Positions 42,754-58,087 of a stretch of DNA of 63,066 bases are shown piece after piece (position 1 is the first letter of the stretch; each line of letters opens with the position of its first letter). The stretch comes from a virus. Taxonomy: Duplodnaviria > Caudoviricetes. Location of the stretch: the IMG/VR virus record IMGVR_UViG_3300003324_000427, positions 1 to 63,066 of that record; one strand, 5' to 3'. The translations under genes were made by a program, and so were the position numbers. A model generated the notes under the pieces. The model was not told the origin of the DNA. It made no database searches and saw only the letters and a program-made list of their open reading frames with translations.

Positions 42754-42779
42754 ATGTATGAACCTCTTTCATAGGTGGA

Positions 42780-42806
42780 ATTGTATGTACTTTTTTATTA
42801 AGTCAA
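42780..42806 (-). promoter_or_regulatory. sigma70-type promoter
   Basis: TTGACT-N15-TACAAT upstream of GAGGT SD. Confidence 0.6.
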
Positions 42807-43397: not shown

Positions 43398-44265
43398 ACA
43401 ATTCGTTTATGGATGTTTTATATTTTGTTATTCTGTCTTTAGCTATTTCAGCGTACTTCTCATTCCATTCCATACCTATCCATTTTCTACCATGGATAGC
43501 TGACATCTTGCCGGTAGTACCACTGCCCATGAATGGGTCTAATATTACGTCACCTGGATTGCTCCACGAAAGAATGTGATCCTCAGCTAGCTTTTCTGGA
43601 AATATAGCAGGATGGTCGAACGCTTCTTCGTCTTTAGTTGAGAAGCCGGCACCAGTGTTGTATCTCCAAATATTGAAGCGAGCGCCAAAGTCCGGAGTAA
43701 TATGTCCTTTAGTTTCTATTAGTTCGTCATTCTTACCGCGTGAAGTCTTCTTACCCCAATTACCAACTCCTGCCCAATTGTTCTTTCTATCTTTCAATAG
43801 ATTTACAGTAGTTGGCCGGCCTTTAGTGATGATGAACATGTACTCAAACACTTGATAGTATCTATTCTTTGACGGGAAAGAACATCCGTTCTTTTCGTAA
43901 ATCATAGTATCATGGATATTAAATCCTAATGATTTGAAATAAAGAGCTTGTCTGAAACTAGTTCCAGTTTCAGAACCATTCTTATCAGTACCATCTCCGA
44001 CAACCCAAGCAATTGTTCCGCCAGGCTTAACTATTCTATAGAGTTCTTTAGCTAAGCCCTCAAAGTCAAAAGAATAGCCATTGTATTTTTCTAATAACTC
44101 TTCTTTGGTGTCATTGTCGTACAGCTTGTTATCGTAATTTCTAATATCATCGTAGGGTGGCGAAGTAACTACCAGATTTATACATTCATCTGGTAGTTTC
44201 CGACAAGACTCTACGTTGTCACCAACCATTATTGTGTTTACATATTGCTCAAAATCATTCATCAT
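43390..44265 (-). CDS. DNA N4-cytosine/N6-adenine methyltransferase (beta class)
   Basis: VTSPPY motif IV precedes HPA.FP and DPFMGSGTT motif I; probable start ATG at 44265 overlaps upstream stop. Confidence 0.92.
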   Translation of the reverse strand: MMNDFEQYVNTIMVGDNVESCRKLPDECINLVVTSPPYDDIRNYDNKLYDNDTKEELLEKYNGYSFDFEGLAKELYRIVKPGGTIAWVVGDGTDKNGSETGTSFRQALYFKSLGFNIHDTMIYEKNGCSFPSKNRYYQVFEYMFIITKGRPTTVNLLKDRKNNWAGVGNWGKKTSRGKNDELIETKGHITPDFGARFNIWRYNTGAGFSTKDEEAFDHPAIFPEKLAEDHILSWSNPGDVILDPFMGSGTTGKMSAIHGRKWIGMEWNEKYAEIAKDRITKYKTSINELFE

Positions 44266-46438
44266 CTTGACAGATAACCTTAAATCCCTTCGCCTCAAGT
44301 TGCTTACGGTTTTCAACACCGCCTCTTGATAGGAACATTATACTTCTAAATCCTGGGAATTCATCTTTCTTAAAATCGTCAATGAATCCGTCAGTGAAGA
44401 GAACTAAGAGTTTCTTGTTCTTTTCTCGCTTCAATTTCTCATAAACAAGACGCATAGTGGTACCACCAACTTCTTTTATTGGGATATTCTTGGCGCGCCG
44501 GATGTTGTAGATGCGGTCTTCTGAGATTCGATTATGACATTGGATGATACGTGCTCTGTCAATGTCGCAGTCTCTTGAAATCTTTTCAATCTGCTGAATG
44601 AAATCGTTCCAGTCACCGCCATTGATAGAACCTGACGTATCTACACCGATTACCAAGTCGATACCCAAGTCTCTCTTCTTACCTGGGAAAGTATCATCAA
44701 GAGCACGGTGTTCACGACTCATAGTATAGTCGTGTTCAGTTGGATTGAGACAGTGTACCAATTCCTGGCAAAGTTCCCTCTTCCAGTTCTTCTTTCTGAC
44801 GTTGAACCATTCCTTTACTACGTGTCCGAAGACAGCAAGGTGCGGAATGTCATTAAGAGCAGCTTCAATTTCTTCTGGGCTGTCTGGATTATAACCAGCA
44901 CGACGGATACTGTCTCTGATAGTCTGCTTTACTTCTTCACGTGCTGCAGAGTGATGGACGTTGAACCCCTGGTGCTCTTGGCCGCCGGAACCTTTTCCGC
45001 GCTCCTTCTGTTCAGAAGGTTGGCCGTTACCTGCAGCTTTGCCCTTCTTTTTGTTCATGATTTCGTTTACTTTGTCTTTTACTTCCTGTGGCACGTTGTC
45101 CATGTCCACTGGTTTCCCGCCCTTACCGTTCTTACCGATAACGATGGTGTTGACTTTACCTTGGCCCTCACCTTGACCGGAGCCTTGCCCTTCCTTTTCA
45201 CCCTCACCGCCGTTGCCTTCACCTTCTTGATCGCCTTCGCCACCCTGACCGTCTCCATTTCCGTCATCATCGCCAGTAGCGTCAATTATTTGCCAAGTTT
45301 CGTGACCGTGGGCACCCTGATCGACTTTATCAAAGTCGGTATTAGCTTCCATGAACACCTTGTAATAGAATTCGGCGCTTTGATTTGAGAATTTGTTTCT
45401 CTTTCTAGTGAATAGATTCCAGCTATTGCCCTCTGACATGTACTTGTCAAAAAGGTGCTTCTCATGAGGAATGAATTCGTCAATTGGACTTGAAGAATTC
45501 AAGTTATATTCCTTAGCTATTTCTTCCCTTATTTCTTTGTCATTGATGATTTGCCACTTCATGATGGAGTATACGAATGTGCTCCAGAAACTTGGCGAAT
45601 CTTCTGTGATGAGAACCTTTCGGAATTCTTCTGGCCAATTCAACTGTGAGTTGATGGCGAAGTCTGCGGCGATGTTCCATACCTGTGGATTCTTATCATT
45701 TACACGTGTCAAGTGATCCCACATGACGTGCATCATTTCGTGCATAATTACGCAGTTGATTGAGTTTCTGAAATACTCACAAGTGAAGATAAGATCGCAC
45801 CACATCTTCCAACCGGTGTCTGTCCATCCGCCTTCCTCAGCGCACTTCTTCAACTCCATGTAGAATGGATGACTGATTCCGTACTTATCGAAATCCGGTT
45901 GCTTCTTAAGGTTGAAAGTTCCTTCCTTTTCAAACTTCTCAATGTTACTATCGTGCCATTCAGTTAAACGCTTAGAGTAATCTTTCTTTTCTTCGCCGTT
46001 CTTTCTCTTTGGTTGGGTGTCGAAAATTGACGATACAACGCTGAGCTTGTATATCTCAAAGGGGTTGATCATCATTTTGTAACGGTGTGCGTTACCAAGG
46101 AAGCACATTGCTGCTGGCCCTGGGAAAGTGAAGTCGTCAAGCTGCCAGAGGCGCTTAGAAAACGACTTCCAGAATGGATTGTTTTGAATGTCAATCATTA
46201 TTTCGCGGTACGAAACAACTTTGTTGTTTGACACACGTTGACTATCGTGTAGGGAATTGAATTCCTGGTAATAGATGTTGCCGTTGTAGTTTTGTAAGAT
46301 GTAACATGGGGAATAACCAAAGAATAGCGAAAGTGTTGAGTGGCTAAACTTTGGTGTTATCCCGTTGTTGAGTATGTTACTCTTGATTACTTGAACAGTT
46401 ACGTTCTTGTCGGTACTGGTATTTGCGTCAGCGGACAT
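44255..46438 (-). CDS. DUF2201-like metallopeptidase plus vWA domain protein (MoxR partner)
   Basis: HEMMH..W.H HEXXH; WNIAAD.AIN; Gly/acidic linker; C-terminal vWA with DTSGS MIDAS, GGT, FTDG. Confidence 0.9.
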   Translation of the reverse strand: MSADANTSTDKNVTVQVIKSNILNNGITPKFSHSTLSLFFGYSPCYILQNYNGNIYYQEFNSLHDSQRVSNNKVVSYREIMIDIQNNPFWKSFSKRLWQLDDFTFPGPAAMCFLGNAHRYKMMINPFEIYKLSVVSSIFDTQPKRKNGEEKKDYSKRLTEWHDSNIEKFEKEGTFNLKKQPDFDKYGISHPFYMELKKCAEEGGWTDTGWKMWCDLIFTCEYFRNSINCVIMHEMMHVMWDHLTRVNDKNPQVWNIAADFAINSQLNWPEEFRKVLITEDSPSFWSTFVYSIMKWQIINDKEIREEIAKEYNLNSSSPIDEFIPHEKHLFDKYMSEGNSWNLFTRKRNKFSNQSAEFYYKVFMEANTDFDKVDQGAHGHETWQIIDATGDDDGNGDGQGGEGDQEGEGNGGEGEKEGQGSGQGEGQGKVNTIVIGKNGKGGKPVDMDNVPQEVKDKVNEIMNKKKGKAAGNGQPSEQKERGKGSGGQEHQGFNVHHSAAREEVKQTIRDSIRRAGYNPDSPEEIEAALNDIPHLAVFGHVVKEWFNVRKKNWKRELCQELVHCLNPTEHDYTMSREHRALDDTFPGKKRDLGIDLVIGVDTSGSINGGDWNDFIQQIEKISRDCDIDRARIIQCHNRISEDRIYNIRRAKNIPIKEVGGTTMRLVYEKLKREKNKKLLVLFTDGFIDDFKKDEFPGFRSIMFLSRGGVENRKQLEAKGFKVICQDDE

Positions 46439-46489: not shown

Positions 46490-47098
46490 TTATTTGAGCT
46501 TCCCGTTGCTTGGGCAGCTAATTTTGACTCCATTAATCCTAAATGGGTCGTTTTCTTCCCAAAAGGTTCTCCATACTGACCCATCTGCAGCTAGCTTCAT
46601 TTCGCTTTCTTTGGCGGTAGAAGTGACATTGTGTCCAGAAGCTAATACATCATACGTGTGTGATAGTCTTCCCGGTGTAACAACTTTGAACACCGTGGTT
46701 CCGCCGGATATATTGACTAAATCACCAGTCTTGAACTTAGTCTTGATTCTATCGTTCCACATTACCTTTGGTGGTAAGTTGGGTCTAATCTTACCCATTG
46801 GACGCTTCTCTTCGATTTCACCAGTAACAGAAGAAACGTCTTCAAACGTACCAACATCGCTATCAGTAAATTCTTCTTCCTTGTCAATAGACGCTAAACT
46901 TTCAACTGGTTCAACGTTATCTTCTTCTAAGGAAACTAAGGATTCTGTATTGGTATCTAAAGCATCTTCCCATTCCTTTTCGTTCTCTTCTACTTCTGGC
47001 TCAACAGGAACGATAGGTGTTTTCATGGGTGCTGGTTCTTTCTTTTTCTCTTTTTTTACTTTTATGGTTTTTGTGGTTTTTACTTTACGCTTATTCAT
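46490..47098 (-). CDS. hypothetical protein: basic N-terminus, acidic middle, SH3/KOW-like C-terminus
   Basis: FKTGDLV.I.. beta-barrel-like motif. Confidence 0.7.
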   Translation of the reverse strand: MNKRKVKTTKTIKVKKEKKKEPAPMKTPIVPVEPEVEENEKEWEDALDTNTESLVSLEEDNVEPVESLASIDKEEEFTDSDVGTFEDVSSVTGEIEEKRPMGKIRPNLPPKVMWNDRIKTKFKTGDLVNISGGTTVFKVVTPGRLSHTYDVLASGHNVTSTAKESEMKLAADGSVWRTFWEENDPFRINGVKISCPSNGKLK

Positions 47099-47348
47099 TT
47101 TCGGCGTCTTTCGTTACTAGAACTTCTTCTTTAGGTATAGCTAGTTTTGGTTTAGCTTTGATTAGCTCGTCACTTGAGCAAAAACGTCTGTCACCGATTA
47201 CGTTGTTTTTAACGAAGTGAACGTTCCATTCTTTCTTCTGCTTATTGAACTTGTTATCAACATCAAGTTCTGATACTATAACTCCGTCAATGGTTGGCTG
47301 GTCCGTTAGGTTAACCTTATCGCCTACCTTGAATGATGATTTGCGCAT
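47091..47348 (-). CDS. small SH3-like hypothetical protein
   Basis: FKVGDKV.L......G.I...W.V.F. Confidence 0.7.
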   Translation of the reverse strand: MRKSSFKVGDKVNLTDQPTIDGVIVSELDVDNKFNKQKKEWNVHFVKNNVIGDRRFCSSDELIKAKPKLAIPKEEVLVTKDAENE

Positions 47349-48434
47349 TTATGAGCCTCTTCTTTCCTTGTTAAGATAGATAAGTAGTTTACTCTTATCG
47401 TTATATGATGGCTCAGTTATAACTTTATTGAGAGCCAAATCAAGGAGTTTCTGCGCCTCGTTTTCCTCAATGCGGAAGGAAACTTTGATTAATTCAACGT
47501 TCAAATCTAACTCGTCATATGATACAGCGGCAGCTTTTTGGTCTTTCACGTACTTAGATAAAGTCTTGTATCCCAATGCTTTAAGTAGTCTGGTTAGGCT
47601 TTGAAGCTTGTCTTTACCGCATATGTTGAGAATCTTCCTAGCGGTAACTTCGTCTTCTTTTTCTATCTGCTTGATACAGGAAAATATTTTTATGACATTT
47701 ACTGTATCTTTCTCAGCAAAGCCAACTTTATTAACAAGGAAAAACTTCAAGTTGTTTATATCAACATTTTTGAAAATAACAGCGAAGTATTCTTCAATGT
47801 CTTTTTTATTAAGATGGTTCAAAATAGCAGTCTCTGATAGATTCTCACCAAACAATACTGACGAAACGCCAAGAGTGTTTATTATGGCTATTATCTTTCT
47901 TGTTTTCTTACTCTTAACGAAAACGTCTATTAGGAAGCGGTAGATTTCTCTTTTGTTGGAAATACTCAAAAGGTTTTCTCTTTGGAAGAACAATGTCTTC
48001 ATGAGAGAAACGCTTAATGAGAATCCGGTTTCGGCTAATAGAGTAATGGTTTCCAGTATGAGTCTAGGGTTATTAGAAATGGTACTTTCTAATTCCGGAA
48101 CAATATTGATAACACCCATAGTCAAATCTGTGAACCCATTACCAGTTGGAGTTGGTACAGCTATAAGGGAATCATTCACCTTCACGTGAATATCATCTAT
48201 AGTAAAGCGAACATCATCTTTTGGTATTTCTGAGCCATAGAAGTATGTGAAATTTATAACATGCTTCGATAGTATGTTTTCGGTTTCTTGACTTACTGGC
48301 CCCTTTACAAATACAGAAATCTTATCCGGCGAATTCTTGAGAATCAAATTCCTCAATGATTTACCAAACAAGAACAATTCGTTAGGGACATCCTTGGACA
48401 GTTGCTTTAATTCATTTAGTATAATTTCGTCCAT
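47349..48434 (-). CDS. tRNA nucleotidyltransferase (CCA)/poly(A) polymerase-like protein, degenerate active site
   Basis: LFGKSLRNLIL (cf. VGGAVRDLLL); RFTIDD (RRDFTIN); GFTDL..G.I; NPRLIL (DPLRIL); ISNKRE (IS.ER); no DxD. Confidence 0.65.
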   Translation of the reverse strand: MDEIILNELKQLSKDVPNELFLFGKSLRNLILKNSPDKISVFVKGPVSQETENILSKHVINFTYFYGSEIPKDDVRFTIDDIHVKVNDSLIAVPTPTGNGFTDLTMGVINIVPELESTISNNPRLILETITLLAETGFSLSVSLMKTLFFQRENLLSISNKREIYRFLIDVFVKSKKTRKIIAIINTLGVSSVLFGENLSETAILNHLNKKDIEEYFAVIFKNVDINNLKFFLVNKVGFAEKDTVNVIKIFSCIKQIEKEDEVTARKILNICGKDKLQSLTRLLKALGYKTLSKYVKDQKAAAVSYDELDLNVELIKVSFRIEENEAQKLLDLALNKVITEPSYNDKSKLLIYLNKERRGS

Positions 48435-48454
48435 GGTATATTCCCTTGAGACTT

Positions 48455-48679
48455 TTACTTATCTTTTACTTCAGATGAAACGTGATCGCCGCTCAAGTCA
48501 CCGAATCCTGGTGGAATTGGGCTCTTGTTTTCTAGTTCATGAACTTTATTTTCAAGTTGCTTGATGTATAGAAATGCGGATAAGCACGCTTGACTTAACG
48601 AGCCCATTTGTCCTATTTGGGCAAGACGTATGAGTTCATCTGTAGTGTAGACTTTACCGGCTGGAGTTAGTTTTGGCAT
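48455..48679 (-). CDS. hypothetical protein
   Basis: probable start MPKLTP at 48679 with GAGGT SD. Confidence 0.65.
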   Translation of the reverse strand: MPKLTPAGKVYTTDELIRLAQIGQMGSLSQACLSAFLYIKQLENKVHELENKSPIPPGFGDLSGDHVSSEVKDK

Positions 48680-48689
48680 AATTTGTACC

Positions 48690-49115
48690 TCAATAATATG
48701 TTCGTTCGTAGATATCATTATACCCGGTTAAGTTAGAACTCCAAGCGGGTCCTACACATATGGCAACTGGTTCGTCAATGATATAAGAGACGGTTTTCTT
48801 TCGTATATGGTTGTTGTTTAACAATTCAATCATCTTTTTTGTACTTGATACTTTATAGATTACCGGTTCTGATTTTCTATTTACCCACGCTTGACATTCC
48901 TGTGAAGATGTCCAAGAGAAAAACCAACTTGAAACGCAGTCTATAATTGCCACTTGTTGGAAATCTGCAGGATAGTCTTCATTTACAAACACCACAATAT
49001 GAGAAACGTCTATTTTTGGCAGTCCAGTTCTTGGATCAATGTTGTTTGGAGTGTTTTTCTGTTTCCACTGCTTCAACTTTCTTAGTATCAAGAGCCGCTT
49101 GAGAAACTTCATCAT
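48690..49115 (-). CDS. peptidyl-tRNA hydrolase 2 (Pth2)-like protein, degenerate
   Basis: IVVFVNED; W......VIYKV.S...M.EL; IID..VAICVGPA follow Pth2 motif order; catalytic K and DAG-T absent. Confidence 0.5.
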   Translation of the reverse strand: MMKFLKRLLILRKLKQWKQKNTPNNIDPRTGLPKIDVSHIVVFVNEDYPADFQQVAIIDCVSSWFFSWTSSQECQAWVNRKSEPVIYKVSSTKKMIELLNNNHIRKKTVSYIIDEPVAICVGPAWSSNLTGYNDIYERTYY

Positions 49116-49308
49116 TTATGTAACCTTTGTAAAACATGAACCCAATAATCAAGACAATCGCAGCGAAGCATGTGTGAATGGCGCGTTTGATGTTCTTTAC
49201 GTCATCTCTTTGAAGTCTGGTCTCATAGAACTTCACGCCTGCAGCGGCAGTGAAATAGAGAAACAGTATACACAAAGATAATAGAATTAAAGACGTATAA
49301 AACATCAT
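49036..49308 (-). CDS. small membrane protein (2 TM)
   Basis: two hydrophobic stretches; GGAG SD; promoter TTGAAA-N17-TATGAT (49353-49325). Confidence 0.65.
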   Translation of the reverse strand: MMFYTSLILLSLCILFLYFTAAAGVKFYETRLQRDDVKNIKRAIHTCFAAIVLIIGFMFYKGYINDEVSQAALDTKKVEAVETEKHSKQH

Positions 49309-49353
49309 TCAGTCTCCGCTCAATATCATACGAGACTGTTAGCCAAATTTCAA

Positions 49354-49704
49354 TTATTTCTTTTCTTCTTTTTTGGCTTTCTCTAAGTCTTTCTTATCGT
49401 CATTACCTTTGAAATTACCGAACTTGAAATTGAATTCATCAGCCAATTGTTTAATCTTAGGTAATTCTTTAACGAGTGTAAGAATTCTTTTTTCTACAGG
49501 AAGAGATACCAATGAAACTGGAACGTTGCTGTGCTTCTGCTTAATATTTCCTGAGATGTGCTTATTCAGTATGAGCCAGGAAATAAAAGATTCTAAAGAA
49601 GGAATTTCAACCTTGACGACATCAAAGAATTTGTCTTCTGGTGATGAAGTCTTTTCATCAATCTTAGTCTTAGGATCGCTATACCAATCTCTGAAAGAAG
49701 CCAT
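49354..49704 (-). CDS. late-expressed hypothetical protein (possible internal head protein)
   Basis: TATAAATA at 49730-49723 upstream; MASFRDW N-terminus. Confidence 0.65.
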   Translation of the reverse strand: MASFRDWYSDPKTKIDEKTSSPEDKFFDVVKVEIPSLESFISWLILNKHISGNIKQKHSNVPVSLVSLPVEKRILTLVKELPKIKQLADEFNFKFGNFKGNDDKKDLEKAKKEEKK

Positions 49705-49722
49705 GTTGTTCCCCTTTCAATC

Positions 49723-49730
49723 TATTTATA
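49723..49730 (-). promoter_or_regulatory. T4-type late promoter
   Basis: exact TATAAATA on minus strand in intergenic gap. Confidence 0.6.
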
Positions 49731-49733
49731 TTA

Positions 49734-50081
49734 CTAAGCTGAGATTTTTTGTATTAACTTTTGGTAGTTATCCCCGTTATCGTTAGCATCTACTAAAAAA
49801 TTGGCAAGATGTATGAAAGACTGCGGTAATACTTGATGAAAACGTTGCTCATCAACTTTTCTGGCTTTCATGGCGATCCACCCAGCTACCGCCAATTTTA
49901 ACATCTCTTGAGAAGTAAGCGGTTCCCGATTGAGGACTTTGAACATATTCATAGATTGGAATATGCTTAGTGCCTGGGCAGCCGGCTCTATGTGTTCTGT
50001 TTCTGACTTTGGGGGAAGAGTCGGACATAGAACCATCAACCAACCAAGGTCTTCTTTTATTTTGTCTTCAAATTTACTCAT
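49734..50081 (-). CDS. hypothetical protein
   Basis: probable start at 50081 (ATGA overlap with upstream stop). Confidence 0.65.
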   Translation of the reverse strand: MSKFEDKIKEDLGWLMVLCPTLPPKSETEHIEPAAQALSIFQSMNMFKVLNREPLTSQEMLKLAVAGWIAMKARKVDEQRFHQVLPQSFIHLANFLVDANDNGDNYQKLIQKISA

Positions 50082-50539
50082 AAAACACACCAGCCTAATA
50101 ATAAAAATGGTATAAGTATTATACTCGCAGTTATGACGTTAGCTATGGGCGCAATAACGATGTCGTAATACGTTTCCGCTGATTCCCACGGAATGATGAA
50201 TATTTTCAATAGCTTATAAGCTTTTGGGAATTTTTCTTGAAATTTAGACAGCGTTATCTTAATGAAACTTACGCCTTTTGTGTTGTCGTCACCTTCGGCG
50301 GTAATAACAGCGGTGTACCCCAATGACGCAAACATGTTTTTAATGTCATATCTGTCTAGATTATTGACTTTCGCTTGATAATGAACTTCCGCAACTCCAT
50401 TTTTAGAAGTAATAATTTGAAGTACAGAACCATTTTTACATAAATTGATAGTTATGTCTTTAGCTGTACTCAATTCTTTTTCGTATTTTTCTACAGCTTG
50501 TTCAAGAGTTTTGATGTATATGTCTTTCTCTTCTGTCAT
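50078..50539 (-). CDS. hypothetical protein with C-terminal TM segment
   Basis: N-terminal coiled coil; hydrophobic C-terminus; ATGA overlaps. Confidence 0.7.
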   Translation of the reverse strand: MTEEKDIYIKTLEQAVEKYEKELSTAKDITINLCKNGSVLQIITSKNGVAEVHYQAKVNNLDRYDIKNMFASLGYTAVITAEGDDNTKGVSFIKITLSKFQEKFPKAYKLLKIFIIPWESAETYYDIVIAPIANVITASIILIPFLLLGWCVL

Positions 50540-50781
50540 TTTGTATCTTTCTTAGGTACCGGAGCTTTGAAAGTTACGAGATATCTCTTCCCATTGAAGA
50601 ATAAGATATCGCCTTCTTTAACGGCATAAGACGGGTTACGTATAAGAACATCGTTTACCTTTATTAGTTTACGTTTGACGAAATCTTGAATTGATTTGAA
50701 TTCAAGAGTAAATTGACTACGCATCCATTCAATCAATGGCATGCTTTTTACCGAATTATCCACACTAGCGTTATTTTCCAT
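50536..50781 (-). CDS. stand-alone S4 RNA-binding domain protein
   Basis: L..W......KSIQDFV....IKVND....NPSY.VK.GD.I S4 consensus; GAGGT SD. Confidence 0.8.
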   Translation of the reverse strand: MENNASVDNSVKSMPLIEWMRSQFTLEFKSIQDFVKRKLIKVNDVLIRNPSYAVKEGDILFFNGKRYLVTFKAPVPKKDTK

Positions 50782-50789
50782 GTATTACC

Positions 50790-51662
50790 TCAAAGAAGGA
50801 CTGAGCCTTTGAATTGCCAGTCTGTATATAATTCTCCATTTGGGAAGAAGATAAGTTGCCTGGCGGTTTCTTCTTCTGGATTTCTTGTCAAGCAATTGCT
50901 CAAGCAAAGGTTTTGTCCGTTCAAATCGTAAACTTGGGCCCCGTGGACAAGATTTTGGATAAGGGTGCCGTGTCTGCGGACATAGTTAATGATATCATCT
51001 TTTTGGTGTACCTTTAGGAAGTGTTTCTTCGTCCATTCTGATACTTCCGAATCTTCTGACTTATCTGGTGCGTTTACTGGACGCCACGAAATTTGACGGA
51101 CATTGTTATCCTTGGCGAACTTCATAAGGTTTAGTATCTTTTCTGAGCTATCAATATAACCGTCAAGGCCAACGCACGTCAAGCGTACATTTATACCGCT
51201 ATTTTGAATCTTCTTTATGACTGCTGGTAAGTCAAAATACTTCTCTGCTTTCGGCATATAAGTTTGACGATTAATCTCTGGTTCATAGTGAACTACGGAA
51301 ATTAGAATAGTAGTCATTCCAAGTAGATACCACTGTGATAGCATAGTGTCAGTTACTAAATCTTTTGCTATCATAGTTCCGTTAGTCTGCAGCTCAATGA
51401 ACGGAAAATCAAATTTATTCAGATGTGCGAGGTAATCTGATATTTGTTGTGGGTGAAGAGTTGGTTCGCCTTTACCGGTGATAATAACAGTGTTTGTACC
51501 TGACCGATATGCGAGATTAGCAGCTTTCATAAAATTGCGGACGTTTATGGGGGTAATCTTACGTTCTACGCCATCAAATCCGGTTTGTCTACTAACGCAG
51601 AATGGGCACGATGCGTTACAAATTTCAGAACCACTCACAATGCTAAAAGTCTGGTATTTCAT
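50790..51662 (-). CDS. radical SAM protein
   Basis: CNASCPFC CxxxCxxC; ITGKGEPTL; QTNG. Confidence 0.9.
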   Translation of the reverse strand: MKYQTFSIVSGSEICNASCPFCVSRQTGFDGVERKITPINVRNFMKAANLAYRSGTNTVIITGKGEPTLHPQQISDYLAHLNKFDFPFIELQTNGTMIAKDLVTDTMLSQWYLLGMTTILISVVHYEPEINRQTYMPKAEKYFDLPAVIKKIQNSGINVRLTCVGLDGYIDSSEKILNLMKFAKDNNVRQISWRPVNAPDKSEDSEVSEWTKKHFLKVHQKDDIINYVRRHGTLIQNLVHGAQVYDLNGQNLCLSNCLTRNPEEETARQLIFFPNGELYTDWQFKGSVLL

Positions 51663-51672
51663 AGTGTCTTTC

Positions 51673-51981
51673 TTAGATTAGTTTGTCCCAAATTGCGTCA
51701 GCGTGTCTTAATGCCGAACTTATCATGTTCTTACCATATCCATCAAGTGAGTGACAGTTCCAGCCGATCCGATGTGGCATCTTCTTATCAATGGTTCTCT
51801 TTTCCATCCAACAAGCGATCATATAACCGTCGCCGTTATCTTTCATGTTACCAAGATTGTAATTGAGAGAAATGTAGTCGTATTTGCCGGTGGACAACTC
51901 GTCTATAGCGTCCCAAGCAGTTTTAACCCACTTGTCAAAACCACGTGGCGCTGGTCTATCAGCATCAACCCAAAGTCTCAT
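51673..51981 (-). CDS. cyclic-phosphate-processing receiver (cREC)-like domain protein
   Basis: M.LWVD..RPAP.G...WV...ISL...LG...GY....W...HS...G...M; promoter TTGATT-N15-TAGAAT (52029-52003). Confidence 0.75.
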   Translation of the reverse strand: MRLWVDADRPAPRGFDKWVKTAWDAIDELSTGKYDYISLNYNLGNMKDNGDGYMIACWMEKRTIDKKMPHRIGWNCHSLDGYGKNMISSALRHADAIWDKLI

Positions 51982-52025
51982 TTACACCCTTTCGTTGTTC
52001 AGATTCTATCAACTATTACGAAAAA

Positions 52026-52466
52026 TCAATCTTTTTTCTTTCTTTTTGATTTCTTTGGCTCTTTGTGTTCTTTTACTCGCCAAATGAACTCATTGAATTT
52101 TGAATCCCAGCACATCTCTAATATATTCTGATCAACCAATCGTCCTAAGAACTTAGAAATTATATGGTTAGCAAGAGTCTTGACTATATCTTCGATGTTG
52201 TATTTGAGTATGTACGGTTCCTTACTGTCGGCACCGTAGAACACAAAGCGTCTCAACTCAAACATTATAACATCATGTGGTAAGTCTTCGTCACCAATAT
52301 CATCGGTGTCCAACTCAATCTTTTTTATGTCCTTCTTGTCTTTGAAGTGCTTAGCTACTTTCAAGCTGAATTCTTGCCACGACTTCTTTTTCAGATAGTC
52401 AACAAAGCCTTCCATATTTGTAATCTTACAGATATATAAATCGCTTTGATCGTCCGATTCAGACAT
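52026..52466 (-). CDS. hypothetical protein (146 aa)
   Basis: GGGGT SD; LV....LE..WD....EF.W C-terminal motif. Confidence 0.75.
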   Translation of the reverse strand: MSESDDQSDLYICKITNMEGFVDYLKKKSWQEFSLKVAKHFKDKKDIKKIELDTDDIGDEDLPHDVIMFELRRFVFYGADSKEPYILKYNIEDIVKTLANHIISKFLGRLVDQNILEMCWDSKFNEFIWRVKEHKEPKKSKRKKKD

Positions 52467-52469
52467 TCA

Positions 52470-52559
52470 TACCCCGTAAGACGACAATGTAACATTGTTC
52501 ATCAAACGTATTTATCAACAATTGTCAACAAATAGCCTGTTATGGCGTATTACGGGGTA
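52470..52559 (-). promoter_or_regulatory. long-range hairpin enclosing promoter elements and occluding SD
   Basis: TACCCCGTAA(52470-52479)/TTACGGGGTA(52550-52559) plus 3 further bp; loop contains TTGACA and GATAAATA on the minus strand. Confidence 0.6.
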
Positions 52560-52562
52560 CTT

Positions 52563-53402
52563 TTATCTCATTCTAGTCCGGTGCATTCCGTGAAAGTTAC
52601 CAAGTTCTGCTTTATGATACTCAATAGTTTTCTTATCGGTATCATAAATAAAGGCTTCCTTCCAGTCTCTACCATCCGAACTATCAGTGCTCCCAACACA
52701 GTAAAAGTAAGTGCTTTGAACTTTCTTCATACATGTTTGATGAAAATGGCCATATGCCCAATTCTCTGGTTTGGTGGTTAGTCCAGTCCAGAGTCTTGTC
52801 AATGCGCCTTCACCGCAATCGTGATTTGGTCCAGTAGAATGCCCTTTTCTGTGACAGAATTTATCAATGCTCTCAAAGAAAAACGCATTACCTACCATAC
52901 CAACACCAATAGAATGTGGGCAGCTATGAGTTATCATCAAATCAATCTTTGGAACAGAATTGAATTTGACAATAGCTTCAGCTACTTCAACGCGAAGTGG
53001 GTAGTTAGTGGTTCTCCGGTCAATTGAACCTTCTTGTGCTCGGTCAACGTTTAGAGCGCCACCGAAAAACCCGACAGTTGCCCCGTCAAACACTTCAATG
53101 GTGCCGCGTGGTTTATAAGTGAAGTTGTACTTCTCTTGCCACTCCGCACCGTGAGTAACGTTTGCTTCCTTCAACCATTCGTGATCCTCATGATTTCCGT
53201 CAATAACAAACGTTTTGATTGGTAGCTTATCGGTTCCCTTCAAGTTCTTAAACACGCTTCCGTAAAATCCAAAATCACCCACTTGGATACAGTGAGTGAT
53301 ATCTGGAAATTTCTTGAGTGCCTGAGTTTGAACATAGACAAGGTGTACCAGTCCAGTTCCTGGACCAGCATGTAAGTCACCTAAAATGAGAATTTTAGCC
53401 AT
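52563..53402 (-). CDS. calcineurin-like metallophosphoesterase
   Basis: GDLH, GDFG, GNHE, TH..P, GHFH motifs. Confidence 0.92.
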   Translation of the reverse strand: MAKILILGDLHAGPGTGLVHLVYVQTQALKKFPDITHCIQVGDFGFYGSVFKNLKGTDKLPIKTFVIDGNHEDHEWLKEANVTHGAEWQEKYNFTYKPRGTIEVFDGATVGFFGGALNVDRAQEGSIDRRTTNYPLRVEVAEAIVKFNSVPKIDLMITHSCPHSIGVGMVGNAFFFESIDKFCHRKGHSTGPNHDCGEGALTRLWTGLTTKPENWAYGHFHQTCMKKVQSTYFYCVGSTDSSDGRDWKEAFIYDTDKKTIEYHKAELGNFHGMHRTRMR

Positions 53403-53438
53403 ATCTTATTTCCTGCGGCGAAGTCTACAAGACTTAAC

Positions 53439-53765
53439 CTATAATTCAATAGAAATATCTTCGTCAGCACCAACAGTTATGATGGCGTCAATCCTATGTG
53501 GTAACTGGACTTCTGCGTTTCTATACTCGGCGTATTCAAGACTGACCGGGCATGCGTCAATGGATACCGATATTTCGGTATCACAGTTTTGGATTGCGTC
53601 AAGAATAGACACCTTCAACAACGCTAAATTGTCGTTTTTGGTGTTTAGCTTGTGTACGTTAACAACCATTACGTCGCCGCTCATTGCGTCCACAAGAGCT
53701 ACTACTAGCTCCTTAGCTTGTTTCTTAACTGGTTTCTTTTTGATAACTTTTTTATTTTTTGCCAT
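53439..53765 (-). CDS. hypothetical protein (108 aa)
   Basis: AAGGA SD; basic N-terminus. Confidence 0.7.
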   Translation of the reverse strand: MAKNKKVIKKKPVKKQAKELVVALVDAMSGDVMVVNVHKLNTKNDNLALLKVSILDAIQNCDTEISVSIDACPVSLEYAEYRNAEVQLPHRIDAIITVGADEDISIEL

Positions 53766-54507
53766 AGAAGTATTCCTTGTGAAATTGTATGCTGAACTCG
53801 TTAACCTTGTTTTCGTCCGGCTTCAACGGAAGTTTGGAGTTACTTACTGCAGTCTTCATCTTATCCGCTAGTCCTTGGACTAACGCTATGACTTCCTCTC
53901 TGCTGTGGAAACCACCAACCTTCAACTTGCGTGCTATGTCTAATTCCTCACCACTAAGAGTAGGGTTTATTCTACCTTCAGTGAACAATTGCGCACCTTG
54001 AACACCTATTCTGTAGGCGTGTGATGCCATCTTAGTATCAAAGCCGAACTTCTCTACTAACTCACGTCTCTTTTCTCGGTGAACACCGGAACGGTTGACG
54101 AAGCACTTTATTTGATCGTGATAATATCCGTAGTAACCATTGAACAAGTGTTGGGTTATCATGTGCTCTCTAACGAAAGCCATGAGATTTCTACCAGCTT
54201 CGGTGTTTACTACCATATACTCTTCGTCTACGAATGGTATTTCCGCTAAAGTAGGATTACCGTTCATGAAAAGTTGTAGGAAGTAGACAACGGAATACAA
54301 AGTGGTTTCAACTTTGTCCTTGCCTTCTCCTACAACACTCTCAATACGTTTCTGAGGCTTGTATTCCTTTAGACCGAAGTAATCCGCTTCAGTTGGAACA
54401 ACCTTGTCAACTGATTCTATGAAAACACCCTTAAAATCGGTGTCTGAATTTTCGTTAGCTAAGCCGTAAAGCCTTGAACCAACATAAGTTTTGAATAAAA
54501 CATCCAT
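53752..54507 (-). CDS. Pol-beta superfamily nucleotidyltransferase (YcgL/RlaP/T4 NrdC.11-like)
   Basis: VGSRLYGL....SDTDFKGVF; GNP...E; D.K.ASHA.R. Confidence 0.88.
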   Translation of the reverse strand: MDVLFKTYVGSRLYGLANENSDTDFKGVFIESVDKVVPTEADYFGLKEYKPQKRIESVVGEGKDKVETTLYSVVYFLQLFMNGNPTLAEIPFVDEEYMVVNTEAGRNLMAFVREHMITQHLFNGYYGYYHDQIKCFVNRSGVHREKRRELVEKFGFDTKMASHAYRIGVQGAQLFTEGRINPTLSGEELDIARKLKVGGFHSREEVIALVQGLADKMKTAVSNSKLPLKPDENKVNEFSIQFHKEYFYGKK

Positions 54508-54560
54508 ACTTTACTCCAATTTGAGAATTCCAATTATAATATGTAAAGTATGGATGTCAA
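54500..54560 (-). promoter_or_regulatory. consensus promoter inside a 15-bp inverted repeat covering the start codon
   Basis: TTGACA(54560-54555)-N16-TATAAT(54538-54533); arms 54500-54514 and 54543-54557. Confidence 0.75.
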
Positions 54561-54564
54561 ACTA

Positions 54565-55770
54565 TTAGTGTTTGCCGCGTCGTTCTTCTTTACCCTTGTT
54601 CCAACCGTCTTCGTAACCGTTCTTTAGTTCTGCAGCAACTTCATCTTGTCTGCCCATTAGCGCATCATATTTACGAGTATGCGCTTTTTGATCGGCATAA
54701 CCCATATCAAAACCATTGCTGTAGGTTTCCTTAGAGTTGACATCTGGGTCTTCAAATTCAAAATCAAATTCCGTGTCAGAATCTTCGTCTTCTTCCTCTT
54801 CATCAGTTTCGTAGTCAGCAACACCCATGTAGTATCCATCAACGAAAGCTTCCTTGAAGTCTTCAGTCTTATCTTTGTACAAGAGAGATAGAAGGTTACT
54901 CATTCCCTTGGTTTCTTCAAGTACACAACCATTTTCAACGTGATTCTTAGCTAATTCATAACCAGCATCATAACCATCATCGTAACGTGCTGTTTCGTCG
55001 CTGTAAACTTTGTTTACTCCGCTATTACGATCACGATTTCTTGAGTAGAGGTTTTCGCCGTCAAGCTCACCTTCAAAGTCACCAAGGACTGTGTAAGCGC
55101 ATACTCTCATCTTCTTACCATCGTAGTCTGTTGGGACAGAGACTACGTTTTGTGGGTTTACTTCCACGTATATTAACTGATCACATGAAGAACCGTAGTG
55201 ATTCATGGAATAGTCAAGATTGGCAACGTGTAAACCAACCGAGCAAGTATTGTTTGGATTATCGTCAACTTCTTCTCTTGGCATTGAAACAACTTTGTTT
55301 TTTGAATTATCCATTAATCCAGTGCGCAAATCTCTGTAGTTACTTCCAACCTTCTTATACGCAATGAAGTTACCTTCTTCGGTTATTGGATGTCCATTGT
55401 GCTCTAAGAAACCAAACAAAGCATTACGTGCTCTGAATGATGGGTTCTTTGATAGGTTTACCCAAAACTTGATAATTGGTTCAAATGGAAGTTGTTGTTC
55501 CATGAAGCTGATTATCTTATTACTAATAACATCTGGAATAACCTTACCATTTATATACACTTGTCCGTCTTTGACTTCAAAGTTACCTTCGGACTTTTCT
55601 TTTAGCTTCTTTGAGAAGTTGATTAAGTCTGGCAACTTATCCCATTTCTTTTCTTTTAGGGCAGCAATTACGTCCTTGTAGGAATGATTAGCTGCTGAAA
55701 TAGTGTGGTTCTTACCGTTATAGATGAACGTCACACCTTTTTCCGAAATAGTAAATGGAATATAATTCAT
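54565..55770 (-). CDS. rIIB: RIIB-like protein
   Basis: FW.NL..NPS...LF.FL; IT..G.F.AYK; MPR..VDD.P..TCS.GLH; V.P..VVSVP.DY...K.RVC.Y.V; downstream of rIIA. Confidence 0.92.
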   Translation of the reverse strand: MNYIPFTISEKGVTFIYNGKNHTISAANHSYKDVIAALKEKKWDKLPDLINFSKKLKEKSEGNFEVKDGQVYINGKVIPDVISNKIISFMEQQLPFEPIIKFWVNLSKNPSFRARNALFGFLEHNGHPITEEGNFIAYKKVGSNYRDLRTGLMDNSKNKVVSMPREEVDDNPNNTCSVGLHVANLDYSMNHYGSSCDQLIYVEVNPQNVVSVPTDYDGKKMRVCAYTVLGDFEGELDGENLYSRNRDRNSGVNKVYSDETARYDDGYDAGYELAKNHVENGCVLEETKGMSNLLSLLYKDKTEDFKEAFVDGYYMGVADYETDEEEEDEDSDTEFDFEFEDPDVNSKETYSNGFDMGYADQKAHTRKYDALMGRQDEVAAELKNGYEDGWNKGKEERRGKH

Positions 55771-55801
55771 ATAAAAATGCCCTTTTTCTTATTCTACCTT
55801 G

Positions 55802-58087
55802 TTATTTTACTTTGTCAACCGTCTCAACGTATCTTATGATAGTTTTCTTCCTATCTGGCTTATCGCTATCCGAACACCAAGTATCAAGATACTTTATCAT
55901 TTCATAAGTTTTTTCCACATCATCAATGATAGCTTTTCTTTCCTTTGTTTGATATTTCTTGTAAAGAATATCATTACCAAGGAACATTTTATAGATTGGT
56001 ACTTTATCGGCATTTTCATCGGTGATGAAGAATGTTTCTAAGTAATTTCTCATCTTGCTGTTCTTGTTCTCAATGTCAGCAGCAGTTATCTTGAATTTTT
56101 CCATAACTGACTGAATTTTATGAATGTCAGATAGTTTACCTTCAATAACGCCACAGTAAGTATTTGCTAATACTCTATCAAATAGCTCTTTACCCTCAGC
56201 AGTTTTCATCATTTCGTCTAGCTTGTTGAATATACCAGCTTCTAATTTAGTCAATTTGCTATTGCCGACTACGCTGCTTAGTAGTCTTCTTGGAATAGCA
56301 TATAGCTTCTTACATCCCAAGAATTTTTTACAGGTATTGATGTAATGCCAATTATGAGTAGATGAATCTCGGTGACAGATTTGCTTATCAAATAGATAGA
56401 GATGTTGGCCTTCTAATTCAATATAATAACCGTCAAAGTCTTTCATAGCGACATTACGTTTTTGGATTGAACATTGATGCTCGTCAATCTCATAGATATT
56501 GAATTTTACGTTTCCATCTCTTGCGACAACTCGTTTAGCTGCTTTTTTCTTCTCTACCTTTGAAAGATAGATAGGTTCGTATGCTGAAATGTTGTGAGTC
56601 TTCAAATCAGAAAGAAATTCATCATGGGCGTCTTTCCACGATTCGTAGTCGGTGAAATTAGTCGTTATGACGAAGATATCTTCATCTGTCTTCTTATTAT
56701 CGAAGATTGTTCTCATTCTAGCGACGTTTGGTCTCTTTTCGTCTGGAACGTCGTTTACTACGAGAATTATATCATTCTTGATTTTTGATTTCTCGGCATT
56801 GTAGTTGTAATGATATGCGTCGTTTTCTTTCCGGAACATGGTATTGGCGACAGTTTGCGTAGTATAACCACATGCCTTAGAAGAATCTTCGGCTATTAGA
56901 ACTATCTTCATAGCTTCTGTACATGAAATGTGGGAATCTACAGTCTTACCCTTCCACTTTATTCCCTTAACAAGTGACAATACGATATTGTTGTAAGAAG
57001 CCAGCGCTTTCATTGCTAAAAGCATGTTAGGTTGCGATTCAACATCATCCCTAACATTTTTAGTCATTTCGTATAATGCGTTCTCAATTCTCTTTATGAT
57101 AGCGTTAGAAGTTTTCTGGTTATACTGCAGAGATTCGCGGCTGATAGAAACGTCAACCTGTCCAGTCTTGAAGTATAGGAAGCAATTGAATTTCTGAATG
57201 AATGTCTGAATATTACCTTGGTTGGCGTATTTCGCTTTCTCTGCTTCTTGTATAACAACTGCGCTATCCAATGGGTAGAACACGCCGTCGACTATTACTG
57301 AACAACCAGTAGCATTCGCACCTGGGGTTCTTCCGGTGCTGATGTCAATTGTTTTACCATTAGATTTTGCCGCTTCTTCAACGTCGCCGTCATATTCTGC
57401 TGTGGTGTTACGAAGAACCCAATGTCCGTGTTCGCTCTTAGTGATAATGGACTTATCTGATGGCCACTTTATATTGGCGTTGAGTCGGTGAATAACTGGA
57501 CGTACATCCCAATGGGCGCACGAATACACAATCCATTCACCGAACTTTGAAATATCTTTCAGCGCAATAGGAACGCTAACGAGGGTACCGTTCTCTTCTG
57601 TGGTTGGTTCTTCTGCTAATAGATTCATTTCACCGCATTGGGTTTCGTCAAGAGACATGCTGTAGTATCTCTTGGTGCCGTCAATGAATGTAACTACGCT
57701 GAATTGGTCAGTATATGACCAAGCAGACTTAGCGCCTAATCCGAACCCACCTGTTTGATCATTTGATTGTGTCTTAGTGGAAGAACCGAACTTACAGAAA
57801 ATGTTTTCCATTCTATCTGGACTTACACCTGGGCCGAAATCTCTGATTTCTAATGTCTGATCTTCAATTGTTGGGGCGTATACGTGGATAGGAACGTTGT
57901 CCTTCCCAACTTCTCTATGGGCATCTCTACCATTACACATGTACTCTTGGCAAATAACTCTAATCTTGTTGGAGTAAATGTTATTTCTGAGGAATCCGAT
58001 AATCATTGGAACATTACCAATGGAGAATTTTTCGCTTAGGAGAACTTCTGACTTATCGACTTCCTTACCACCAAATGCTACTTTCAT
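55802..58087 (-). CDS. rIIA: RIIA-like protein (N-terminal GHKL/HATPase domain)
   Basis: IYSNKI....E...N.RDAH; IRDFGPG; STK......GGFGLG.KS...YT..F; SRE.L.Y. Confidence 0.93.
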   Translation of the reverse strand: MKVAFGGKEVDKSEVLLSEKFSIGNVPMIIGFLRNNIYSNKIRVICQEYMCNGRDAHREVGKDNVPIHVYAPTIEDQTLEIRDFGPGVSPDRMENIFCKFGSSTKTQSNDQTGGFGLGAKSAWSYTDQFSVVTFIDGTKRYYSMSLDETQCGEMNLLAEEPTTEENGTLVSVPIALKDISKFGEWIVYSCAHWDVRPVIHRLNANIKWPSDKSIITKSEHGHWVLRNTTAEYDGDVEEAAKSNGKTIDISTGRTPGANATGCSVIVDGVFYPLDSAVVIQEAEKAKYANQGNIQTFIQKFNCFLYFKTGQVDVSISRESLQYNQKTSNAIIKRIENALYEMTKNVRDDVESQPNMLLAMKALASYNNIVLSLVKGIKWKGKTVDSHISCTEAMKIVLIAEDSSKACGYTTQTVANTMFRKENDAYHYNYNAEKSKIKNDIILVVNDVPDEKRPNVARMRTIFDNKKTDEDIFVITTNFTDYESWKDAHDEFLSDLKTHNISAYEPIYLSKVEKKKAAKRVVARDGNVKFNIYEIDEHQCSIQKRNVAMKDFDGYYIELEGQHLYLFDKQICHRDSSTHNWHYINTCKKFLGCKKLYAIPRRLLSSVVGNSKLTKLEAGIFNKLDEMMKTAEGKELFDRVLANTYCGVIEGKLSDIHKIQSVMEKFKITAADIENKNSKMRNYLETFFITDENADKVPIYKMFLGNDILYKKYQTKERKAIIDDVEKTYEMIKYLDTWCSDSDKPDRKKTIIRYVETVDKVK

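Follow-up and report, generated by a model that had tools for sequence, protein, structure and literature searches.

A conserved CCA-adding-enzyme paralog lacking catalytic motifs and a probable dispersed RNA-repair toolkit in an uncultivated jumbo phage

The stretch of DNA analysed here, hereafter referred to as the window, comprises the 63,066 bases of the IMG/VR virus record IMGVR_UViG_3300003324_000427 (Caudoviricetes), for which CheckV gives a completeness of 29%; this implies a genome of about 200 kb and a jumbo phage. An interval of about 7 kb on its minus strand (47349-54507), together with a kinase gene further downstream, encodes proteins whose families are associated with the healing of RNA ends, with tRNA and with the rescue of ribosomes. 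With moderate confidence, the interval is best explained as a portion of the early-gene block of an uncultivated jumbo phage, contributing one share of an RNA-repair and tRNA-maintenance toolkit that is dispersed along the genome rather than forming a self-contained island. The new elements are a conserved dead paralog of the CCA-adding enzyme, a degenerate cREC domain and a family of radical S-adenosylmethionine (SAM) enzymes linked to nicotinamide adenine dinucleotide (NAD); beyond these, the interval conforms to the usual RNA repair toolkit of jumbo phages.

An earlier reading, made from the sequence alone, had assigned eight domains to these genes and had regarded them as a possible undescribed island in which dead and live enzymes lie side by side. 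The genes for all eight assignments were located on the minus strand at the coordinates given below, the family associations were upheld, and the mixture of dead and live enzymes is borne out by the dead CCA paralog and the degenerate cREC. The description as undescribed goes too far, as the same families are already listed for jumbo phages. The RNA repair and ribosome rescue complement set out for those phages (Iyer et al. 2021, PMC7824862, section 3.4.9) includes RtcB, ATP-grasp ligases and polynucleotide kinases, and further HAD, calcineurin-like and HD phosphatases, cRec, RlaP, a CCA-adding enzyme, Thg1, PTH2 and tRNA arrays. The window shares with it the RlaP, cRec, calcineurin-like phosphatase and polynucleotide kinase families; unlike the members listed there, its CCA homolog is dead, its cREC lacks the aspartates and its Pth2-like protein fails the PTH2 model, while a radical SAM enzyme and an S4 domain have no occurrence in the main text of that article.

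Conserved backbone, lineage-specific insertions and the relative G054

Relatives of the window were fetched using its CCA-like, VWA and MoxR proteins. The CCA-like protein is 32-37% identical in the distinct distant relatives, which comprise L006 (equal to L009/L101), L008 (equal to L100), L098/L099, L103 and L007 (equal to L102); L098/L099 are a near-identical pair representing the records G054 and G055, and L007 covers only the last 51 residues of the CCA-like gene. Absences in these relatives pertain to a site or a fragment and not to a genome. A common backbone was observed in the order 146-aa gene (one or two copies), 116-aa gene, small membrane open reading frame (ORF), 87-aa gene, dead CCA gene, 85-aa gene and 202-aa gene, continuing with the VWA/metallopeptidase and MoxR genes, the 355-aa, 188-aa, 211-aa and 92-aa genes, ClpP and a 243-aa gene, and then the structural genes. 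The dead CCA gene is present in every relative that covers the site, and in L006, L008 and L103 it persists with no Pth2-like, cREC or RlaP neighbour.

The genes encoding rIIA, rIIB, RlaP, the 108-aa ORF and the phosphoesterase, which lie upstream of the 146-aa gene in the window, are absent from that site in all three relatives that cover it (L008, L098, L103). Likewise, the block comprising the cREC, radical SAM, S4, 153-aa and 118-aa genes between the 146-aa and 116-aa genes is absent from its site in four out of four relatives that cover it (L006, L008, L098, L103). Additional to the backbone in the window are a methylase gene and a 196-aa ORF between the VWA and MoxR genes, and a block of a 225-aa ORF and the kinase gene between the 355-aa and 188-aa genes; at the latter position none of five relatives (L006, L007, L008, L098, L103) has the kinase. 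In place of the rIIA-phosphoesterase block, L006 (2-1654) and L008 (4516-6189) encode a membrane-anchored protein of about 550 aa.

Close relatives keep the arrangement of the window: cREC homologs lie on contigs of the same lengths as those carrying the CCA-like homologs of 96% and 75% identity, and a strain of about 90% identity is colinear with it across 38.9-58.4 kb, a single contig spanning 49,193-53,446; parts of the stretch that have no contig cover in the data for this strain were not counted as absences. The 7 kb are made up of a conserved core and at least two lineage-specific insertions, and are stable at short evolutionary range. Conservation of the gene neighbourhood, a check suggested in the sequence-only reading, holds for the colinear relative of about 90% identity and fails in the distant relatives, from whose sites the insertion blocks are missing. 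The single co-conserved island is contradicted by this backbone with at least two insertions relative to four to five distant relatives, and by the scatter of the shared members over about 50 kb in G054. In searches of whole records, RlaP was detected in none of G001-G003 and in one of the four records G054-G057, cREC in two of the seven (G054 and G055) and the radical SAM family in none of the seven.

The record G054 (101.6 kb, 44% complete) provides the widest view of the gene set in a relative. It carries an RlaP of 37% identity cut by the contig end (94-579), an intact cREC (about 17.8 kb), a live CCA enzyme matching PF01743 (25.5 kb), an RNA ligase with PHA02142-OB and PF09414 (29.8 kb), a Rnl1-type ligase matching PF09511 (38.4 kb), a polynucleotide kinase (PNK)-like kinase of 50% identity (40.8 kb), the Pth2-like gene (48.6 kb) and the dead CCA gene (49.3 kb). 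The set from RlaP to the dead CCA gene lies on one strand, and a second AAA_33 kinase is found at 12 kb on the opposite strand. Nineteen tRNA genes, one with an odd two-base anticodon call, are located between 91.8 and 101 kb. No homolog of the 108-aa, 153-aa or 118-aa proteins or of rIIA or rIIB was found in the 101.6 kb.

The observation in the sequence-only reading that no RNA ligase is visible in the window was upheld by searches of the 63 kb for ligase families (RtcB, RNA_ligase and Rnl1), all negative. Of the ligases and tRNAs that it suggested looking for elsewhere in the genome, two ligases and 19 tRNA genes are present in the record of the related G054, and none in the window. The absence of a ligase from the window probably reflects the incomplete contig, because the ligases of G054, like its live CCA enzyme and kinase, sit on the side on which the window contig ends (63,066), upstream in the direction of the genes.

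A catalytically dead paralog of class II CCA-adding enzymes

The gene at 47349-48434 (minus strand) encodes a protein of 361 aa, identified on the basis of fold, profile and motif loss as a catalytically dead paralog of the class II CCA-adding enzymes and poly(A) polymerases. The protein alone has no Pfam match, and yeast Cca1 was found at E 0.18. Seven homologs with 35-96% identity were identified, one of which is labelled 'tRNA nucleotidyltransferase/poly(A) polymerase' by its source, and the resulting eight-sequence profile matches E. coli poly(A) polymerase (E 6.7e-4) from motif B to the neck region. An AlphaFold2 model with a mean predicted local distance difference test score (pLDDT) of 77.6 gave 46 Foldseek matches at E <= 1e-3, and all the matches listed are class II CCA-adding enzymes, A-adding enzymes or poly(A) polymerases, with about 340-520 aligned columns. 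In comparison with class II enzymes (PDB 1miv, 3h39, 4x4w and 3aqm), the model matches the full head-neck-body-tail architecture, with a best Foldseek E of 1.8e-7 and a template modelling (TM) score by query length of up to 0.66.

The loss of catalytic residues is consistent throughout the family. In class II enzymes, DxD is known as motif A, RRD as motif B and EDxxR as motif D. The live CCA enzyme of G054 matches the PolyA_pol head-domain model (PF01743) at 9.4e-22 and reads GGPVRD...DID, RRDFTIN and EDPLRMLR, while none of the eight CCA-like members matches this model at E <= 1. Judged against the live paralog, the second Gly, the first Asp of DxD, the RRD motif and the Arg of EDxxR are each kept in none of the eight dead-family members. 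In five of the eight, an acidic residue still occupies the place of the second Asp of DxD; in the window protein the two Asp positions are taken by Lys and Ser. The head domain of the family has a deletion of about 35-40 residues. The eroded CCA-like protein of the sequence-only reading is thus substantiated as a class II fold whose catalytic motifs are lost in 8/8 members.

The body and tail of genuine CCA enzymes hold the tRNA. Averaged over pairs of dead-family members, identity is 26.5% in the head and 33% in the neck, rising to about 45% in the body and tail, and this better conservation of the body and tail than of the head fits a loss of catalysis with the putative tRNA-holding parts retained. 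A tblastn search with the CCA-like protein against deposited phages gave no match, and no paper on a dead phage CCA paralog was found by title or abstract, although supplements may hold relevant tables. A conserved dead CCA paralog that coexists with a live enzyme, as in G054, looks new.

Enzymes, pseudo-enzymes and neighbouring genes

The intact nucleotidyltransferase and metallophosphoesterase recognised in the sequence-only reading were both corroborated by their motifs. The first is a protein of the RlaP family of Pol-beta nucleotidyltransferases (53752-54507, minus strand; 251 aa), which matches PF10127 with 68.4 bits (cut-off 23) and phrog_388 at 2e-40 over its full length. Its GS...SDTD active-site motif is intact, with G10, S11, D22 and D24 invariant in an alignment with three phage homologs (A6); the third carboxylate is Glu in the window protein and Asp in the three homologs, a conservative change, and the protein would thus appear to possess the three Pol-beta carboxylates. 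RlaP is reported to add one or two nucleoside monophosphates to RNA 3'-OH ends, to be needed, according to the authors, for the function of repaired tRNAs after excessive damage, and to use strictly conserved aspartates as catalytic carboxylates, and T4 NrdC.11 is named as a family member (bioRxiv 10.64898/2025.12.29.696909). The window protein belongs to the same Pfam family as the RlaP of the Pseudomonas RtcB operon described in that preprint and has the nucleotidyltransferase motif intact; it differs in its Glu as the third carboxylate and in having no RtcB or RtcA gene as neighbour.

The distribution of RlaP is stated to mirror that of RNA ligases (PMC7824862, section 3.4.9). This association is not seen within the 63-kb window, which represents 29% of the genome, and in G054 the two ligases are placed 29-38 kb from RlaP. 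Homologs of RlaP were detected by tblastn in 457 deposited phage records. When viral contigs were scanned with the RlaP protein alone, the single weak locus obtained (L002) had no genes in common with the window, and no solved chain matched the RlaP of the window by sequence. A 252-aa neighbour of RlaP in Bcp1 was considered as a phosphoesterase homolog and rejected.

A perfect sigma-70 consensus (TTGACA-16-TATAAT, 12/12 positions) is located at 54533-54560 on the minus strand, in the intergenic spacer between rIIB and RlaP. It is a possible early promoter, from which the host RNA polymerase would start a transcription unit at RlaP; the 36 promoter-like sites in the region compare with a shuffle mean of 36.8, so that only its position and perfection mark this site. 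Another site, matching 11/12 positions, lies at 55791-55818 on the minus strand in the intergenic spacer upstream of rIIB. Between RlaP and the phosphoesterase lies a 108-aa ORF (53439-53765, minus strand) with no match in Pfam, PHROGs or NCBIfam.

The calcineurin-like metallophosphoesterase (52563-53402, minus strand; 279 aa) matches phrog_1649 at 2e-20 and falls narrowly under the Pfam cut-offs (PF00149/PF12850), with 24 bits against 27 for Metallophos_2 and 19.7 against 21.5 for the other Metallophos model. Metal binding in such enzymes involves the motifs DxH, GD, GNH[DE], H and GHxH, and the translation reads GDLH, VGDFG, DGNHED, THS and GHFH. A homolog of 25% identity occurs in the Sinorhizobium phage phiN3, about 1.5 kb from an RNA ligase. 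In that phage, gp219-gp234 (NC_028945) comprise NAMPT, PTH2 (PF01981), Macro, the phosphoesterase and a PHA02142-OB/PF09414 RNA ligase within about 8 kb. The phosphoesterase has its homolog in the window, and the Pth2-type hydrolase possibly has a counterpart there at the level of fold; the phiN3 stretch is mixed with NAD-related genes. Unlike the window, phiN3 has an RNA ligase and a PTH2 that passes PF01981, and its gp219-gp234 stretch has no RlaP, cREC, radical SAM, S4 or dead CCA gene.

T4 Pnk with Rnl1/Rnl2 and bacterial Pnkp are end-healing and sealing systems, and bacterial Pnkp also has a calcineurin-type phosphatase. The PNK-like kinase proposed earlier was verified outside the interval (39283-39753, minus strand) as a PNK-type P-loop kinase of 156 aa without a phosphatase domain, matching AAA_33 with 82 bits and phrog_505 (polynucleotide kinase) at 1e-24, with a GSGKS P-loop in the translation. 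It is akin to the kinase domains of both systems (E 1.4e-7 to the T4 Pnk kinase domain, 3.3e-9 to the kinase part of bacterial Pnkp) and matches L-seryl-tRNA(Sec) kinase equally well (1.4e-8); its sequence indicates a P-loop domain related to Pnk. Unlike in the T4 and Pnkp systems, kinase and phosphatase are encoded in the window by separate genes 13 kb apart, with no HAD phosphatase and no ligase. Its 50%-identity homolog in G054 is found at a different site.

The cREC domain protein (51673-51981, minus strand; 102 aa) matches PF20274 with 54.8 bits (cut-off 27). It was aligned with two close homologs and seven cRECs from viral records and the Roseobacter phage DSS3P8 (alignment A5). All seven other cRECs have an acidic pair [DE]D ending strand 1, LD[HR]D[LM]G and HS/HT-x-NP, while the window protein reads WVDA, LNYNLG and HSLD. 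In it, three of the conserved aspartates have been exchanged: Ala occupies the second acidic position of the DD pair, and NYN stands in place of DHD. The altered acidic residues noticed previously are thereby confirmed. A homolog of 69% identity (P0009) reads LDYNLG, and the G054 cREC is intact (WLDD, LDHDLG, HSQN). The proposed phosphoesterase activity of cRec rests on receiver-derived aspartates (Iyer et al. 2021, PMC7824862); because these are replaced, the window cREC is probably no longer a catalytically active phosphoesterase, if the proposed activity exists at all. A tblastn search with cREC against deposited phages found one record.

The radical SAM enzyme (50790-51662, minus strand; 290 aa) is a member of its superfamily, as claimed, with 50.5 bits to PF04055 (cut-off 29.5) and a CxxxCxxC cluster whose C15, C19 and C22 are invariant in 36 sequences. 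Its nearest solved structures are MoaA (1.7e-11) and viperin (7.6e-8), and it falls below the equivalog cut-offs of both, with 41 bits against 284 for MoaA and 29 against 180 for prokaryotic viperin; the match to phrog_2076 ('QueE-like') is at just 1e-9. An exhaustive search retrieved 1,175 cluster representatives at E <= 1e-3, of which 286 reach E <= 1e-30, mostly as full-length proteins of about 290 aa. Source names of the relatives are generic ('radical SAM protein' once and 'MoaA' twice among 10 clusters), and tblastn against 50,697 deposited phage records gave no match at 1e-8.

Relatives of this enzyme are encoded in 89 viral-contig stretches, of which 80 loci were kept for a neighbourhood analysis in which all ORFs were clustered and the representatives scanned against Pfam. 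The recurrent neighbours are isochorismatase-type proteins (15 loci), NAPRTase (11), NAD synthase (9) and NMNAT-like proteins (6), followed by DeoC (4), UDG (4) and RtcB (3). At least one NAD salvage gene lies within 6 kb on either side in 13 of the 56 radical SAM clusters (90% identity), often with the enzyme inside a run of NAD genes; the loci concerned are L013, L015, L018, L019, L024-L026, L031, L032, L034, L051, L064, L072 and L073. RtcB is found within about 4 kb in its three loci and is adjacent in one; in L036 (4460-6004) an RtcB homolog directly upstream of the radical SAM gene is split into ORFs of 175 and 274 aa, for which a frameshift, an intein or an error of assembly may be responsible. 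No paper relevant to radical SAM, jumbo phages and NAD was found by title or abstract. In the uncultivated viral contigs this is a large, unnamed, NAD-salvage-linked family, and the window enzyme may not act on RNA at all.

A general link of the radical SAM enzyme to its window neighbours was rejected in both cases considered. With phmmer, the window S4 and cREC proteins were found in none of the 80 radical SAM loci; PF01479 scores above cut-off in 2/50 records, the nearest being 3.2 kb away and of a different type, and PF20274 occurs in 6/50 records, within 1.5 kb of the radical SAM gene in one.

The lone S4 domain of the sequence-only reading corresponds to a probable stand-alone RNA-binding protein of 81 aa (50536-50781, minus strand), with 21 bits to PF01479, narrowly below the cut-off of 22.8. 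In the Atlas structure search it reaches a feature score of 0.90, and its TM score to S4_2/S4 clusters is 0.72. Taken together, Pfam and Atlas indicate that it is probably an S4 domain.

The weakest assignment is that of a 141-aa protein with a probable Pth2-like fold (48690-49115, minus strand), for which the evidence is at the level of fold. Atlas gave a feature score of 0.90 to viral clusters with PF01981 in 21-40% of their members and a TM score of 0.61 to a PTH2 cluster. With a low-confidence AlphaFold2 model (pLDDT 57), Pth2/Bit1 proteins took all of the first 14 Foldseek ranks (12 rows shown; best E 1e-2), and VIA-align against 48,161 chains placed Pyrococcus Pth2 first, with a root-mean-square deviation of 3.3 A over 88 residues and a Z of 5.2, in a range that the tool calls common. 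The earlier assignment thus has tentative backing from fold searches and none from sequence or profile matches. In L003 (66% identity) and L098 (28%, E 5e-9) the gene is likewise flanked by the membrane ORF and the 87-aa gene; it is missing at the site in L006, L008 and L103.

The remaining genes of the interval, all on the minus strand, are small. The 146-aa backbone protein (52026-52466) has no family match and has homologs in L006, L008, L098 and L103, where its gene is tandem-duplicated (L006 1705-2639, L008 6288-7215, L098 3023-4056, L103 4158-5025), the copies sharing a C-terminal C-W-D...F-[IV]-W motif followed by a Lys-rich tail. Two ORFs accompany the S4 gene: one of 153 aa (50078-50539) with a hydrophobic C-terminus, no family match and no counterpart at the site in distant relatives, and one of 118 aa (49734-50090) with no family match above noise and a homolog in the 60%-identity relative L003. 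The 116-aa protein (49354-49704) and the 87-aa ORF immediately upstream of the CCA-like gene (48455-48718) belong to the backbone, with homologs of both in L003, L006, L008, L098 and L103. A predicted membrane ORF of 90 aa (49036-49308) has a homolog in L003; as called from the first start codons it overlaps the Pth2-like ORF by 80 nt, and the true start of one or the other may lie further downstream.

The window has a GC content of 36-43% along its length, with plus-strand genes over 1-36,398 and a minus-strand gene block from 36,395 to its end. The plus-strand genes include giant ORFs of 1,209, 1,918, 1,017 and 3,292 aa; homologous pieces of those of 3,292 aa (24065-33943) and 1,918 aa (12886-18642) in the structural block are separate, shorter ORFs (370-1,452 aa) in the relatives. 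The minus-strand block encodes a ClpP-like protease, two N6/N4 DNA methylases, a dCMP deaminase, an SprT-like protein, a nucleoside-deoxyribosyltransferase-like protein, a MoxR-type AAA ATPase with a DUF2201 VWA/metallopeptidase partner, and rIIA- and rIIB-like genes. The rII pair lies directly upstream of RlaP on the minus strand, with rIIB (54565-55770) matching phrog_609 at 2.7e-67 and rIIA (55802-58087) matching phrog_612 at 9.7e-89. Directly downstream of the dead CCA gene is the pair of the MoxR-type ATPase (384 aa) and its 727-aa partner (41599-46438), kept in all relatives; the 727-aa protein has a DUF2201 metallopeptidase-like N-domain, a Gly/Glu/Gln-rich linker and a VWA-like C-domain. 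The 85-aa protein (47091-47348) and the C-terminal part of the 202-aa protein (46490-47098), both encoded by genes conserved beside the dead CCA gene, have a common FK[VT]GD-x-VN start and may be paralogous small beta-domains. An Rfam scan of the window yielded no family reaching its gathering score, the A1 scan of viral contigs was negative, and a DNA-level search of the interval and window against the 50,697 deposited phage records gave no match.

Competing explanations and biological significance

According to the reading of the interval as one share of a dispersed toolkit, the intact enzymes would heal RNA ends broken by host nuclease attack. Ends bearing a 2',3'-cyclic or 3'-phosphate would be cleared by the phosphoesterase, 5'-OH ends phosphorylated by the PNK-type kinase encoded 8 kb downstream, and one or two missing 3' nucleotides restored by RlaP. 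Sealing would fall to RNA ligases encoded outside the 29% fragment, as in G054, or to a ligase of the host. The dead CCA paralog would most likely bind tRNA without adding nucleotides, the window copy of cREC would be non-catalytic, and the radical SAM enzyme would act in an NAD- or nucleotide-centred process and not with the S4 protein.

Several observations weigh against this reading. The 63-kb window contains no tRNA gene and none of the RNA ligase families searched for, and no RNA ligase family was found in the fragments of the three relatives G001-G003; the relatives are all fragments, 22-44% complete. G054 has no homolog of the phosphoesterase, the radical SAM enzyme or the S4 protein in its 101.6 kb. 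In two Bastille-type Bacillus phage records, RlaP homologs occur among ribonucleotide reductase/replication and methylase genes with no adjoining ligases. The phosphoesterase has no close solved relative, and its family includes members placed among cyclic-nucleotide degraders (Iyer et al. 2021, PMC7824862). The Pth2-like protein has no Pfam match, PF01981 included; neither its sequence nor the profiles A3 and A9 found Pth2 in the PDB, and hhalign against the bona fide PTH2 of phiN3 returned a probability of 0.3%.

The original view of one co-adapted anti-defence island, in which the dead CCA-like, cREC and Pth2-like proteins serve as decoys or scaffolds for the live enzymes, appears distinctly improbable. 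It would account for the tight packing on one strand, with gaps of 8-10 nt or overlaps among the cREC, radical SAM, S4 and 153-aa genes, for the perfect sigma-70 consensus just upstream of RlaP, for the colinearity in the relative of about 90% identity and for the confirmed presence of dead and live members. However, the blocks are absent from the same sites in four to five distant relatives in which the dead CCA gene stays, in three of them with no Pth2-like, cREC or RlaP neighbour, and the members shared with G054 lie up to about 50 kb apart there; the decoy and scaffold roles themselves are pure inference. Another explanation is that functionally unrelated accessory genes gathered in a variable early region, the RNA theme arising from families that are common in large phages. 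The varied contexts of RlaP in its 457 phage records, the several separate insertion points and the ORFs of no known family interleaved throughout agree with this explanation, yet it too is unlikely, as G054 combines RlaP, cREC, the kinase, the Pth2-like gene and the dead CCA paralog with two RNA ligases, a live CCA enzyme and 19 tRNA genes, and the distribution of RlaP follows that of RNA ligases as described by Iyer et al. (PMC7824862, section 3.4.9).

A further possibility, which we regard as doubtful, is that the cREC-radical SAM pair, perhaps with the phosphoesterase, constitutes a counter-defence directed at NAD+/ADP-ribose or nucleotide signals and not at RNA repair. The cRec domain has been tied both to NAD+/ADP-ribose systems and to RNA ligases, and is proposed to process cyclic ADP-ribose or 2',3'-cyclic nucleotides (PMC7824862). 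Genes of NAD salvage lie near 13/56 radical SAM clusters, often directly adjacent, the nearest solved relatives MoaA and viperin act on nucleotides, and the phiN3 phosphoesterase is found near NAMPT and Macro genes. Against this, the scanned minus-strand ORFs of the window include no NAD salvage gene, the window cREC is devoid of the conserved aspartates, the radical SAM enzyme occurs also within about 4 kb of RtcB in the three loci mentioned, and cREC approaches it to within 1.5 kb in 1/50 records. The interval as a share of a dispersed RNA-repair and tRNA-maintenance toolkit remains the explanation favoured here.

Tentatively, and at a rather low probability, a more specific proposal can be made for the dead paralog. 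A clade of uncultivated jumbo phages that also have a live CCA enzyme, two RNA ligases and a tRNA array may keep it under purifying selection, its role being to bind the acceptor end of tRNA without catalysis. It might thereby protect the 3' ends of tRNAs against host nucleases that attack the acceptor stem or the CCA tail or, alternatively, might capture damaged tRNA or peptidyl-tRNA for the Pth2-like neighbour and the repair enzymes; as part of the same low-probability proposal, the tRNA-end module would in the lineage of the window have acquired additional repair genes together with cREC as a second pseudo-enzyme.

Host defences that cut tRNA, including those that cut its 3' tail, are increasingly recognised, Cas12a3 being an example (PMC12851939). 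Known phage counter-measures consist of enzymes and spare tRNAs. If the proposal is true, the conserved dead CCA paralog would add to these a non-catalytic, tRNA-binding counter-measure, and the NAD-salvage-linked radical SAM family provides a lead for an NAD-centred counter-defence in phages.

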